A program made the translations under genes and the position numbers. 64,000 bases of DNA from a virus, in the IMG/VR virus record IMGVR_UViG_3300034356_001232, positions 7,255-71,254 of that record. One strand, written 5' to 3'. Below, piece after piece: positions 1 to 7,602 of this stretch (position 1 is the stretch's first letter; each line of letters starts with the position of its first letter). A model generated the notes under the pieces. The model was not told the origin of the DNA. It ran no database searches and was given only the letters and a program-made list of their open reading frames with translations.

Positions 1-246
1 GAAGGAGACTATACCATACTAATAGCAGATAGAGACATCAAGTTAAATTCAATTAATAACTTGGCGGCTGTATTAGTTCACGAGAGTCTACATCTAATGT
101 TTATAATGGAGGATGCAGTCTTTACGGAAAAGGAAGAAGAATATAGATGCTACTTGTACGAATTATCCTTCATCAAAAAACTACCAACCCCAGAGCCATG
201 GTTAACGGCAAATGCTTATGAAAAAATGCAATTATACAAACCATGA
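1..246 (+). CDS. 5'-truncated zincin-like (HExxH) putative metallopeptidase
   Basis: Frame is open from base 1 (EGDYTILIAD...LAAVLVHESLH...EEE). HESLH motif followed by a downstream Glu. ATGA overlap with the next gene. Confidence 0.6.
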   Translation, partial: EGDYTILIADRDIKLNSINNLAAVLVHESLHLMFIMEDAVFTEKEEEYRCYLYELSFIKKLPTPEPWLTANAYEKMQLYKP

Positions 247-2132
247 AAAAATCATACTCGCTTCTAGTAGGGTTATTCCTACTGACAGCTAGCCTCTTCG
301 GACAGAGTGCTAGTTCTTCTCCTGGCACCGGGCATTGGGTCGTAATCGACTCAGGTTATCAAGTAGCAACAACCACTGTTGGACAGACTGTTGCTCCTCT
401 ACACTTCTACAATACTTCTACATCTGAAAAGATTACAGGTATGCAGTACCGTGTATTCTATGACAACACTGCATTTACTGGTGTAGTTCCTTCCTTAAAG
501 ATTTCTACTTCAGACCAATACCTTCAGTACGTAGACAGTAACACACAAGGATTCTTAACTGTAACTTTAGCTTACACTGGATCTAGTGCTAGTTTTAACT
601 ACTCTAACGGAGCTACATTTGATTTAACCTTTACTCACGCTGCCGAAGCTGTATGGAACAACTTAGATTCTATCAAGACTTTGAAAGTAGCCGGTGTTAA
701 ATCATTCTCTAACAGGGCTGCCACTAACTGGGGTAATGATACTACTTTGGTAGTTTACTCTTATGGTGGTCGCTTCAATCAGAAAGTATTACGTTTTGCT
801 GCTAAGTTTAAAAACATTACTGGTTCTGATGCTAAGAACTTGTGGGTGTCTTTGGAAAAGAAATCCCCAACTGGTTCTTGGACTCATGTAGAAGCTAAAT
901 CAACTAACTCTTTAGGACATGTTGTATTCCGTAAATTCTTAGATACTACTTATTGGGATGTACGTATGGTAGTTAAAGGCGATACAATGATTCCAGGTAA
1001 CGTATTTTCTACTGCAGATGCACAGAAGATCAACCAAGCTATCTTAGCGCAATACACCCCATCAGGATTTGATTACTACACAATGGATGTAAACGGAACT
1101 ACTGGAGATATTTCTATCGCTGACGTATACTCTGTGTATGGACGTTTGGCAGGTAGATTCTCTAGCTGGCCTAACTCTAAGAAGGATGTAATGTTCTTCA
1201 CAGTTGCTGAATACAATGCAATTAATGGAGCCGCTACTAACTTGACTTCTACTTACTCTACAGTAAACAACTTTAACTACACTATTGACGGTAAAGATTC
1301 TATCACTTACTACGTGGCTGTTAAGGGAGATGCAAACTCTACTGGATTTAAGATGGCTCGTTTGACTCCAATCAAAATTATCAATCCAGCTAACGCTAAA
1401 AACTACATCATTGACAAAACTGTAAGTTATGATGATCCTACTTTAGAAACAGTAGAAATCAACATGCCTAAAGTAAAAGTAGAAGACGGCAACTTGGTAA
1501 ACGTACCAGTTAAAGTTTTGACTAACGGCAAAGACTTGGGTGCTCTTCAATTAGACCTTAAATACGATACTGCTTACTTAGAGTTTAAGAACGTAGAAGT
1601 AACCGAGAAAATTATGAAGTGGACTGCTTACACCAATCCTTCTAACGGGATTGTTTCTTGGGGAGGTGCAGACCTAACCAATGCTAATTTGCTGAAAGAT
1701 GGTGAGGCTGTGTTTACGCTTCAATTCATTGCTAAGAAACCTCAAGACTCTTGGGCTACTGCAGCAATCTGGACATCAGAAAAGTACGTAGGAGATGCTA
1801 AGGCTAAAGACATGAATATTACTCCTACTATGGGCATTATTGAGGTTCGTAGAAAAGGTGTAGTAAACCTTAACCAAGTAAGTGACTTGATTGCTTTTCC
1901 AAATCCTTCTGAAGGAGCTATTCAAGTTCAATTCAAGATAGCAGAAGAATCAGACGTTAACCTATCTCTTTACAACGAAGTAGGACAGATGGTTCAGAAT
2001 ATCTTAGACAAGCACATGCCTGTAGGAAACTACAAGTACAGTGTAGACTTGGAAAGACTTCCTGATGGAGTTTATATCTTAACCTTAAAGACTGAAAAAC
2101 AAGTCTTAGACTCTAAACTATTAATCATATGA
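243..2132 (+). CDS. Secreted cohesin/dockerin-like protein with T9SS C-terminal sorting domain
   Basis: SPI signal peptide. N-terminal cohesin-like segment (ITGMQYRVFYDNTAF), dockerin-like DVNGTTGDISIADV, second cohesin-like segment (VNVPVKV...LGALQLDLKYDTAYLEF). C-terminus FPNPS...LPDGVYILTL...KLLII is a type A T9SS CTD. Confidence 0.85.
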   Translation: MKKSYSLLVGLFLLTASLFGQSASSSPGTGHWVVIDSGYQVATTTVGQTVAPLHFYNTSTSEKITGMQYRVFYDNTAFTGVVPSLKISTSDQYLQYVDSNTQGFLTVTLAYTGSSASFNYSNGATFDLTFTHAAEAVWNNLDSIKTLKVAGVKSFSNRAATNWGNDTTLVVYSYGGRFNQKVLRFAAKFKNITGSDAKNLWVSLEKKSPTGSWTHVEAKSTNSLGHVVFRKFLDTTYWDVRMVVKGDTMIPGNVFSTADAQKINQAILAQYTPSGFDYYTMDVNGTTGDISIADVYSVYGRLAGRFSSWPNSKKDVMFFTVAEYNAINGAATNLTSTYSTVNNFNYTIDGKDSITYYVAVKGDANSTGFKMARLTPIKIINPANAKNYIIDKTVSYDDPTLETVEINMPKVKVEDGNLVNVPVKVLTNGKDLGALQLDLKYDTAYLEFKNVEVTEKIMKWTAYTNPSNGIVSWGGADLTNANLLKDGEAVFTLQFIAKKPQDSWATAAIWTSEKYVGDAKAKDMNITPTMGIIEVRRKGVVNLNQVSDLIAFPNPSEGAIQVQFKIAEESDVNLSLYNEVGQMVQNILDKHMPVGNYKYSVDLERLPDGVYILTLKTEKQVLDSKLLII

Positions 2133-6103: not shown

Positions 6104-6547
6104 ATGAAAACTATACTATTCACCCTCGTATCCTTAATGGCTCTTAACCTTCAAGGACAATCCTACAAAGTAGACTCAGTAACATCTACAGCTAGTGTAA
6201 CTGATATTGCTGGTAGACCAATTACATTCGGTGCACAAACAACCCTTGAGCAGTTGATTGCAGACAAATTTAGTTTGTCCGACACAGGTCAAATTGTAAA
6301 AGTGCAGATTTACTCTATTGCAATGCCAGAAGAATTGGTCAACATTATTGGCATCCAATTACTGAAGAGAGATTACATTGTTTCTGTTAGACTGTCAGTA
6401 GGAGATAAAGTTTACGAAGCCCAAGCCAAGAAACGAGTGTTTGTCAATGCAATGTTCTTGACAGTCGAGCAAATCCCCCACAACAAAAAGGCCTATTCAA
6501 AAGCGTTGGAGAAGTCTTTAGCTGTAGCTGTTGCTCAGATGAAATAA
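6104..6547 (+). CDS. Secreted hypothetical protein
   Basis: SPI signal peptide (MKTILFTLVSLMALNLQGQ). Last gene of the tightly packed operon. Confidence 0.75.
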   Translation: MKTILFTLVSLMALNLQGQSYKVDSVTSTASVTDIAGRPITFGAQTTLEQLIADKFSLSDTGQIVKVQIYSIAMPEELVNIIGIQLLKRDYIVSVRLSVGDKVYEAQAKKRVFVNAMFLTVEQIPHNKKAYSKALEKSLAVAVAQMK

Positions 6548-6586
6548 TATACTCCTTCCAGAAACGAAAAATCTATTAGATTTTGT

Positions 6587-6815
6587 ACCGTTTGTAACTT
6601 ATAGTGCAGCAGTTTTGACCAAATGGATTTCTCCAAGTCTCTGTTGTGTCCACTTATTGCCTGGGGTCGCCAGGTCAGAGCACTGCACATTTCGTTAATA
6701 ACGTTTTGACACTATCGGAGAAACCTCTTTTCATCTCTAGGATTACTCATACATCCGACTTCTGACCTGCTACCTACCATAAGCCCTCACAGGTGATCGT
6801 ATTGAAACGGTGTCG
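6587..6815 (-). ncRNA. Candidate structured non-coding RNA (~230 nt)
   Basis: ORF-free segment immediately downstream of a consensus minus-strand promoter. Ends are complementary (6587-6593/6805-6811) and there are several internal 6-9 bp inverted repeats. Confidence 0.5.
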
Positions 6816-6818
6816 CTG

Positions 6819-6849
6819 CAAATATAGAAAGAAAATTGAATGGAGCAAA
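6819..6849 (-). promoter_or_regulatory. Bacteroidota sigma70-type promoter (-33 TTTG / -7 TATATTTG)
   Basis: Plus-strand CAAATATA 6819-6826 and CAAA 6846-6849 read as TTTG-N19-TATATTTG on the minus strand. Confidence 0.75.
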
Positions 6850-6852
6850 GAA

Positions 6853-7119
6853 TTAATCTCCGGCAGCTACCTGAGCAGTGCTACTGTCAGTTCTCTGTGA
6901 GGGCATAGTGTCATACAAAAGCGTGTCAACGGTAAGGAAGACAAACTCATACAGTAGCTTGTCCTTGTACTCCATACCTCGAATGTATCTTTTGAATGAC
7001 TTGTAGAGATTTTTACTAAACACTTCCAGTTCTCCTGCTAGTCCTATCTCGTATTCTTTTAACTCATCAACGAGAAGTTCTACCAATTGTTTTTCTGTAG
7101 GGATCTTAGTTTTTTTCAT
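6853..7119 (-). CDS. Hypothetical protein (only convincing minus-strand gene)
   Basis: 88-aa ORF in otherwise non-coding space, preceded by a minus-strand TATATTTG (7134-7141). Confidence 0.65.
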   Translation of the reverse strand: MKKTKIPTEKQLVELLVDELKEYEIGLAGELEVFSKNLYKSFKRYIRGMEYKDKLLYEFVFLTVDTLLYDTMPSQRTDSSTAQVAAGD

Positions 7120-7133
7120 GCAAGTCTCCTGTA

Positions 7134-7141
7134 CAAATATA
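7134..7141 (-). promoter_or_regulatory. -7 element TATATTTG for 6853..7119
   Basis: Plus-strand CAAATATA. No clear -33 box. Confidence 0.5.
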
Positions 7142-7213
7142 CTTTTATTTCAAAATTTGTCTATTAATCTTTTAAGTTAAGATAGAATTAATCTACAAGA
7201 TTATAACTTTAAA

Positions 7214-7244
7214 CTTGACTTTTTTTATTAGAATAGTATATTTG
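7214..7244 (+). promoter_or_regulatory. Bacteroidota promoter CTTG-N19-TATATTTG
   Basis: CTTG 7214-7217, TATATTTG 7237-7244, upstream of the packaging operon. Confidence 0.75.
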
Positions 7245-7260
7245 TCTAAAACCAACCGAA

Positions 7261-7602
7261 ATGAAAGTCGCAAGAAAATACGAAGAAGGAGTCCAACTAC
7301 ACCAGTCATACATTGATATCTTGACTAGATTAGCTGGATACAGGTTGTCAGATTTACATACTAGTATCTTAGGTTACAGTTCTTACTTTGGAACTATTAA
7401 CAAAGAAATCAAGGATGAGCTGGCTTCCAAGAACAACACTTCTTCACAAGTTATTGCTAACGCAATTACCAAGTTAAGAAAGTTAGGATTACTGGAAAAG
7501 AATGTGATTAACAAAAAACTATCCCCGAACCAAAAAGAGACAGCTTCAATTACATTGTTACTAAGTACCGCCAAGAATAAAGAAAATGCCACGATCTCTT
7601 GA
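7261..7602 (+). CDS. Putative winged-HTH DNA-binding protein
   Basis: ELASKNNTSSQVIANAITKLRKLGLL is an HTH-like pattern. Confidence 0.6.
   Translation: MKVARKYEEGVQLHQSYIDILTRLAGYRLSDLHTSILGYSSYFGTINKEIKDELASKNNTSSQVIANAITKLRKLGLLEKNVINKKLSPNQKETASITLLLSTAKNKENATIS

Follow-up and report, generated by a model that had tools for sequence, protein, structure and literature searches.

Few RNAs are large, intricately folded and built around an invariant core; those known, such as the ribosome, RNase P, self-splicing introns and riboswitches, carry out fundamental chemistry or sensing. GOLLD and ROOL, of ~500-800 nucleotides (nt), are large ornate RNAs without known function, often found in phages or prophages and near tRNA genes (described in part in PMC12286853). 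Here we analysed a 64,000-nt stretch of viral DNA (the window; positions 7,255 to 71,254 of IMG/VR virus record IMGVR_UViG_3300034356_001232), in which a first-pass annotation made from the letters alone had proposed a structured RNA at 6587-6849. The region lies in a gap of 305 nt (6548-6852) between the convergent genes p147 (+) and p88 (-). Judged by comparison of homologues, this gap holds a real non-coding RNA gene of the minus strand, with its start at ~6814 and its end at 6596 or beyond; the RNA is probably roughly 230-275 nt long, with its end at ~6540. The core of the earlier proposal was a structured non-coding RNA of the phage, driven by a promoter on the minus strand and facing the upstream operon in convergent orientation; it was borne out by covariation among homologues, by strand bias and by a promoter box.

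Relatives of the 397-amino-acid (aa) protein encoded upstream gave 79 viral loci, eight of which contain a sequence 76-99% identical to the gap. Short invariant motifs were then used for scans, which after an nhmmer filter gave 37 IMG/VR contigs beside the window's own record, plus metagenome contigs. The alignment of the window's own type, type A (alignment A3), holds 35 full-length sequences, 33 of them distinct, and all helix coordinates of type A were verified against the window sequence. Over 47 base pairs (bp) the 33 distinct sequences were 98.5% paired, as compared to 30-43% when the partners were slid by 1-3 columns. Covariation in relatives was a check that the first-pass annotation had itself named, and compensatory changes on both sides were found in 28 of the 47 pairs. 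The type-A covariation score was 0.453, with a control maximum of 0.075, and was reached by 0 of 500 shuffles. Among the 1540 alignment cells there were 143 G-U and 7 A-C combinations, indicating that the fold exists on the minus-strand transcript only.

The motifs and helices of the single window sequence are not above chance. All the motifs and pairs listed by the first-pass annotation were found where it had placed them, namely the promoter at 6849-6819 (-), ACCGTTT/AAACGGT, CAGGTCAGA/TCTGACCTG, TTTCTCC/GGAGAAA, GTGCAG/CTGCAC and CCTGG/CCAGG. The 263 nt of 6587-6849 contain 6 perfect helices of at least 6 bp, and 300 dinucleotide shuffles contained 6.3 on average; 61% of the shuffles equalled or exceeded the real count, so that the shuffle comparison put forward in that annotation goes against the single sequence. 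A 9-bp helix turned up in 8.7% of dinucleotide shuffles, and the promoter pattern TTTG-N19-TATATTTG has 5 matches in the window where 2.26 are expected, a count reached by 6 of 100 shuffles. The minimum free energy z-score was -1.89 for the minus strand (4 of 200 shuffles folded equally well) and -0.26 for the plus strand. As the single sequence fails the shuffle test, the case for the RNA rests on the homologue comparison.

Among the five helices first proposed, GTGCAG/CTGCAC and CCTGG/CCAGG covary and correspond to helices P5 and P6a described below, while the other three were left without support. The 9-bp CAGGTCAGA/TCTGACCTG helix was 68% paired, with its central positions unpaired in 20-23 of 33 sequences, and its arms belong instead to P2 and P6/P6a. 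TTTCTCC/GGAGAAA was 39% paired over four pairs, and GGAGAAA was actually found to form hairpin P8. The supposed pairing of the two ends through ACCGTTT reached 44.6%, equal to slid controls (21-47%); ACCGTTT instead contributes to P1a, a local hairpin that covaries. The hairpin at 6660-6674, regarded earlier as a competitor of other helices, is a stable part of the fold and competes with nothing conserved. The two long crossing helices were chance matches of one sequence, but a different pseudoknot does exist.

The 5' domain (6708-6814, minus strand, as for all parts of the RNA) is a four-way junction, as seen from type-A covariation and from a family-wide alignment of 81 distinct sequences that was fitted to a covariance model. 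In the latter, 96.7% of the cells were paired, as compared to 27-50% with slid partners. P1 joins GACAC (6814-6810) to GUGUC (6712-6708), the hairpin P1a joins 6809-6807 to 6800-6798, and P2 joins 6794-6790 to 6769-6765. Family-wide compensatory changes were found in 5/5, 3/3 and 5/5 of their pairs, respectively, so all 13 pairs covary, with up to six pair types. P1, for example, occurs as GACAC/GUGUC, UGCAAC/GUUGCA, GGCAA/UUGCC and AGGAG/CUCCU. The alignment shows an invariant joining strand, CAGAA (6764-6760), after P2, and then P3 (GUCGGA 6759-6754 with UCCGAU 6719-6714), in which only changes from C-G to U-G and from A-U to G-U were seen. Beyond P3, the type-A alignment gave an isolated but strongly covarying pair (6749 with 6728) and, in a variable outer arm, the small hairpin P3b (6743-6741 with 6735-6733), followed by the bulge GAGGUUUC (6727-6720). 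By this comparison, the invariant core of the 5' domain is the GUCGGA/UCCGAU helix flanked by CAGAA and GAGGUUUC.

An A-rich linker (6697-6707), in which no conserved pairing was found in alignment A3, leads to the 3' domain (6596-6696), where type-A covariation revealed long-range helices that close the domain around a pseudoknot. P4 (6696-6694 with 6598-6596; compensatory changes in 3/3 pairs) is separated from P5 (6688-6682 with 6610-6604; 4/7 pairs) by a conserved internal loop, with GAAAU (6693-6689) opposite UAUAA (6603-6599). P6 (6680-6676 with 6643-6639) and the hairpin P6a (6674-6670 with 6664-6660) both showed compensatory changes in 5/5 pairs, and a near-invariant strand, CAAUAAGUGGACACAA, occupies 6659-6644 in the type-A alignment. 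The pseudoknot of 3 bp pairs 6654-6652 with 6638-6636 and thereby crosses P6; it was 100% paired, but its support consists of invariant and one-sided changes only, making it the least secure helix. The hairpin P8 (6635-6632 with 6627-6624), capped by a GAAA loop of the GNRA kind, was read by eye as its columns were too poorly aligned to count; the variants seen in this way were UGGA-GAAA-UCCA, UGAG-GCAA-CUCA and CAAAGA-GUAA-UCUUUG.

A probable 3' tail with an uncertain end point follows at 6540-6595 and is antisense to the stop codon of p147 (6545-6547). It consists of a small hairpin running into GGAAGGAG (6559-6552), and then UAUAUUAUUUC (6551-6541). Nearly all subfamilies were found to share a recurrent 3' motif at their 3' end, made up of AGGGG(A) or AAGGA, a spacer of 5-9 nt, and CU(A/G)U(A/G)U or CUAU.U. 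Because it recurs in the window at 6559-6541, the RNA probably runs to ~6540 and is longer than the ~230 nt first proposed. RNAalifold gave no consensus pairing for the tail; a pairing of ~6578-6573 with 6549-6545 was plausible by eye in several clades and absent from the RNAalifold consensus.

The element had been described as free of open reading frames (ORFs) apart from one of 22 aa, which overlooked a 51-aa ATG ORF at 6535-6690 (-). This ORF was rejected as a protein gene, since it is absent or broken in homologues, and its tblastn identity (51%) lies below the DNA identity (76-80%). The loop indels among homologues are not multiples of three. Stop-codon recoding was likewise rejected, as reading through TAA, TAG or TGA leaves every frame across 6500-6900 closed. 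Together these observations indicate that the RNA is non-coding.

Bacteroidota have unusual promoters and translation initiation. The -7 box TATATTTG (6819-6826, -) has the form TAnnTTTG, which we take to be the Bacteroidota promoter consensus for this box, and is conserved at a fixed distance from P1. A TAnn[T/A]T[T/C]G box was found to end 4-7 nt before P1 in all 37 unique type-A homologues, with variable sequence further upstream, and the same box also lies 3-4 nt ahead of P1 in many other subfamilies. The minus-strand promoter of the first-pass annotation was upheld by this box. Its -33-like element TTTG (6846-6849, -) is a pattern match and weak evidence; TTTG or TTGC occurs at this spacing in 8 of the 37, which belong to two clades, that of the window and that of L093, L096 and L350. 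Since a host-type promoter directly precedes the first helix, transcription is expected to start at or just before 6814. In four homologous loci (L097, L319, L088 and L104) there is no p88-like gene and the RNA is on its own, diverging from the homologue of gene p113, and this indicates that it is its own transcription unit. One family member (L390) carries a hairpin and a U7 terminator ~250 nt after P1, inside the element. Contigs from three river metatranscriptome runs (three studies, depth 2-3) cover 6598-6748 (identical to the window), 6551-6594, 6788-6938, 6931-7081 and 6787-7035; as such libraries can hold DNA, we regard them as weak evidence of transcription. No contig of this kind was found over 6300-6550 or 7082-7400, an absence that carries no weight as evidence.

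The 5' domain was also found joined to quite different 3' parts (types B to F, in metagenome contigs), and by sequence comparison the same 5' domain is combined with at least six different 3' domains. A degenerate scan in which P1 was left free gave at least 120 viral stretches, and the 5'-domain covariance model matched 81 of the 85 sources supplied. A subfamily of 250 nt (16 sequences, L400) shares the same P1-P3, covarying P4 and P5, and the UAUAA/GAAAU internal loop. Relative to type A, the two strands of this loop have changed places in the L400 subfamily (A6 columns 137-141 / 204-208), as though the module had been inverted. The outer arm (P3') ranges from an 11-nt hairpin up to ~45 nt, additional inserts of 60-80 nt occur near P8, and element size across the family is ~230-400 nt.

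One homologue (L389) carries a 126-aa Endonuclease_7/HNH ORF (L389:1588-1968 (-); Endonuclease_7 E 1e-24) in the terminal loop of its outer P3 arm. The closing helix, the flanking AGUA/GAGG and the RNA core on both sides are intact around this ORF, which indicates that the outer P3 arm tolerates a 400-nt insert. The ORF was absent from the window and the other aligned members. The same contig encodes a large-terminase homologue (L389:4366-8655 (+)) of 1429 aa, whereas that of the window has 669 aa; judged by eye, the additional residues resemble intein-type insertions, and this phage lineage seems rich in homing elements.

Rfam 15 (4227 models) gave no match in the whole window at the gathering threshold, and at E up to 10 over 6400-7000 only two chance-level matches were found (E 7-9). 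At the element in relatives there was none in 8 at E up to 1, and none in 14 more at the gathering threshold. The RNA that had been proposed earlier as novel indeed matches no Rfam family. For tRNA, transfer-messenger RNA (tmRNA), RNase P and group I introns, which the first-pass annotation had considered unlike it, ARAGORN and the Rfam models gave no match. Searching the GenBank phages with blastn gave no match to the window region or to the L400-type and L401-type RNAs. No such RNA was named in the main texts of the literature searched. One survey, Fremin et al. 2023 (PMC10690425), reports 10,006 unnamed structured-RNA candidates from IMG/VR viruses; the passages of its main text that were consulted do not mention the family, which may already be among these candidates as at least 120 IMG/VR stretches exist. 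Pistol ribozymes were detected on two unrelated viral contigs that carry a family RNA (L401:1753-1817 (+) and L408:6884-6947 (+); scoring 62.5 and 52.2 bits, where the gathering cut-off is 34.5), on the opposite strand and 0.7-0.95 kb away from it.

Based on its distribution the RNA is an accessory gene outside the core functions of the phage. In nine related loci ~120-180 nt separate p147 from p113, and both p88 and the RNA are missing; when five such RNA-less phage records were searched whole, three of them 92-100% complete (CheckV), the RNA was found in none. As far as sequence comparison shows the carriers, the family is one of uncultivated phages, mostly with Bacteroidota-type promoter boxes, plus two integrase-bearing regions in cellular records. 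Scanning species-representative genomes for 16-mers yielded 118 stretches, with L192 as the sole clear member; the nhmmer matches in L245 and L183 were short and weak and were taken as chance. A Neomarinimicrobiota metagenome-assembled genome (G001) carries two diverged copies (G001:C119:11-141 and G001:C265:7015-7156). In the second copy P1 is fully different yet complementary (GUUAG/CUAGC), and an HNH_2 endonuclease ORF lies 1.2 kb upstream. In a Bacteroidota genome the RNA (~L396:9550-9960 (-)) adjoins a tyrosine integrase (L396:10281-11567 (-)), with chromosomal genes (thioredoxin, rhodanese) just past the integrase, and in a metagenome contig a tyrosine integrase (L357:684-1883 (+)) lies directly beside a family member. 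The copies in cellular records face convergent genes. Of 151 genomes sampled from the G001 phylum a single one contained the RNA, and so did one of 151 Bacteroidota genomes sampled; a housekeeping RNA of cells was therefore rejected. Across the types, the neighbouring proteins share no common family (BLASTP, E < 1e-4), and in the window, as in most type-A loci, a convergent gene comes next.

The source viral record of the window is 71 kb long, with a CheckV completeness of 60%. The window encodes a large terminase, a portal and a major head protein, and its phage looks crAss-like. Nearly all of the window genes lie on the plus strand, with p88 (6853-7119, -) as the exception, and the element sits between two gene blocks, with the terminase module further downstream. 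p88 is an orphan protein ORF of 88 aa, directly upstream of the RNA on the same strand; no Pfam or PHROG family matched it, and only nine close homologues were found. A minus-strand gene of 88-97 aa precedes the RNA in 8/8 of the first-found homologous loci and is missing in the four loci where the RNA stands alone, so p88 is often but not always linked to the RNA. p147 (6104-6547, +) has a signal-peptide-like N terminus and is itself outside the element; the RNA tail overlaps its 3' end. A 629-aa phage protein encoded at 243-2132 (+) has a Cohesin domain and a C-terminal sorting domain of the type IX secretion system (T9SS; Por_Secre_tail), which is unusual in a phage gene and indicates a Bacteroidota host. 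Four consecutive giant ORFs (2077, 2188, 2886 and 1960 aa) occupy 25285-61092 (+). Between p88 and p113, a divergent control region (7120-7260) contains sigma-70-like matches at 7163-7136 (-) and 7215-7242 (+), their number being no higher than in shuffles.

On balance we favour, as the best explanation as a whole, an independent minus-strand gene for a stable, elaborately folded non-coding RNA that would act in trans, tentatively on a host factor. That the RNA would work in trans as a folded RNA, and not as an antisense RNA or a leader, appears fairly probable: in the window and in most type-A loci it opposes the general direction of transcription and has no gene behind it, it occurs in unrelated contexts, and in L390 it contains an internal terminator. 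The invariant helix and its joining strands may be the docking site for a putative conserved host protein or ribonucleoprotein, and the phage would then sequester or redirect the docked factor during infection. P3 could covary but does not, and it is flanked by invariant single strands, which suggests contact with a factor. We put such docking forward tentatively, at less than even confidence, as the single most likely mechanism.

Several observations weigh against this explanation. The invariance of P3, which was unchanged in 81/81 sequences apart from wobble pairs, is partly built in, as its bases were in the search patterns, and the host factor is putative only. The RNA-library contigs are thin, and one of them (6788-6938) bridges p88 into the RNA, which fits co-transcription or DNA carry-over equally well. 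The peripheral size variation, the pseudoknot and the endonuclease ORF in a loop are no less typical of ribozymes than of RNAs that bind proteins. By a crude count, a co-oriented ORF comes first downstream in 57 of the 93 unique family members, and in its layout the 3' motif resembles a ribosome-binding site with AUA, AUG, GUA or GUG after it. Such ORFs and such a motif would suit a cis leader.

A ribozyme is the chief rival and was judged unlikely. Here the conserved junctions and the pseudoknot would form an active site for self-processing, or for the processing, ligation or modification of another RNA, with the outer helices as a scaffold. This would agree with an invariant core of unpaired and junction positions surrounded by peripheral helices of very different length, with a pseudoknot that adjoins an A-rich strand and with the sporadic distribution among close relatives. 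The endonuclease ORF in the P3' loop of L389 is in an arrangement typical of self-splicing introns, but the insertion was found in 1 homologue only. No Rfam ribozyme family matched, even at E up to 10, and no cleavage or splice site could be named. The element has no exons and interrupts no gene or tRNA, and the promoter box abuts P1 in 37/37 homologues.

Next comes a promoter-proximal cis leader, which we consider marginally less likely again. The nascent RNA would either modify the polymerase that transcribes it, as in processive antitermination, or govern how ribosomes gain access at the 3' motif. The promoter box directly upstream of P1 across the subfamilies is in line with this, and so is the resemblance of the 3' motif to a Shine-Dalgarno sequence with a near-cognate start; the short frames behind the motif, however, are unconserved in length and sequence. 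In many members outside type A a co-oriented ORF lies ~20-110 nt from the 3' motif, but such an ORF is the default in gene blocks of phages that run in one direction. The downstream genes are mutually unrelated, which fits a generic expression device better than a metabolite switch. In the window a leader would drive antisense read-through into the convergent p147/p397 operon, and the tail is indeed antisense to the p147 stop codon; however, nothing co-oriented follows in the window or in most type-A loci. A riboswitch or other cis leader lies in the 5' untranslated region of its gene; in the window the next downstream gene is convergent, and across the family the picture is mixed. The cellular copies also face convergent genes, and L390 has its terminator within the element.

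Somewhat more doubtful is that the family forms a novel kind of large RNA, catalytic or mobile, in Bacteroidota phages and integrative islands. It would be an intron-like or RNA-processing ribozyme whose active-site junction is invariant and whose outer loops can house homing-endonuclease genes, and it would spread as a promoter-bearing cassette.

A role at the level of DNA, as a replication origin or a packaging or attachment site whose inverted repeats act in DNA, is very improbable. The element does lie between two gene blocks upstream of the terminase module, and two copies adjoin tyrosine integrases. However, the ratio of G-U to A-C cells shows a structure that is one-stranded as in RNA, there are no flanking direct repeats, and the RNA is missing in close relatives, which is unfit for an origin or a packaging site. 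The GC skew makes no turn at 6.6 kb, and a replication primer or origin is not favoured. That the region has no function beyond chance inverted repeats, or is the small protein gene at 6535-6690, is hardly credible: helix counts equal to shuffles, the modest z-score and the existence of a 51-aa ATG ORF would allow it, but there is strong covariation in both the 33 and the 81 distinct sequences, unless the alignments are artefactual, and homologues either lack the ORF or have it broken. Both chance and roles at the level of DNA are thus essentially excluded.

The family, with at least 120 viral stretches, a modular build and an unchanging helix, has no Rfam 15 entry. Under the favoured explanation of a host-directed trans-acting RNA, or under that of a ribozyme, its partner or chemistry could reveal a new phage way of handling hosts or a new ribozyme class, and at ~250 nt the RNA is a compact target for structure determination.

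In comparison to known systems, RNase P RNA was rejected as no Rfam RNase P model matched at E up to 10, and a tmRNA or tRNA-like RNA as ARAGORN found none in the window and none at the element in 8 relatives. Resemblances to group I introns, RNase P and other RNAs that were noticed by eye failed the covariation checks. Like the phi29 prohead RNA, the element is a phage-encoded structured RNA near packaging genes. A packaging RNA of this type was rejected, as no Rfam model matched and the RNA is absent from 9 syntenic loci and from 5/5 related phage records; since three of these are near-complete, it cannot be an essential part of the motor.

The put RNAs of phage HK022 are processive-antitermination leaders, with their structure immediately after a phage promoter. 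They share with the family RNA the position directly after a promoter, and many family members precede unrelated genes. The family RNA is several times larger and more complex, and no operon follows it in the window.

Group I introns resemble the family in size range, crossing topology, GNRA-capped hairpins and peripheral length variation, and in the homing-type endonuclease ORF in a terminal loop, found here in one homologue (L389). In contrast to an intron, the RNA interrupts no gene; in the window it is bounded by the p88 stop and the p147 end. A promoter box of its own is present in 37/37 homologues, and there is no ORF upstream in L097, L319, L088 and L104. The group I model (RF00028) gave no match, and by eye no P7-like pocket, guanosine-binding helix, terminal G, splice sites or internal guide could be assigned. 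The P8 hairpin follows both 3' strands, so that the order of helices around the pseudoknot also differs.

By analogy, the family RNA seems to behave most like the orphan ornate phage RNAs GOLLD and ROOL. It differs from them in being much smaller (~230-400 nt), in giving no match to their Rfam models and in its host range, marked here by Bacteroidota-type promoters and a T9SS sorting domain. On the evidence of its sequence, it is a new class among the phage-borne structured RNAs. Like GOLLD and ROOL it is phage-borne, intricate and pseudoknotted, with a conserved core and variable parts, and one member, L390, lies just upstream of tRNA genes.

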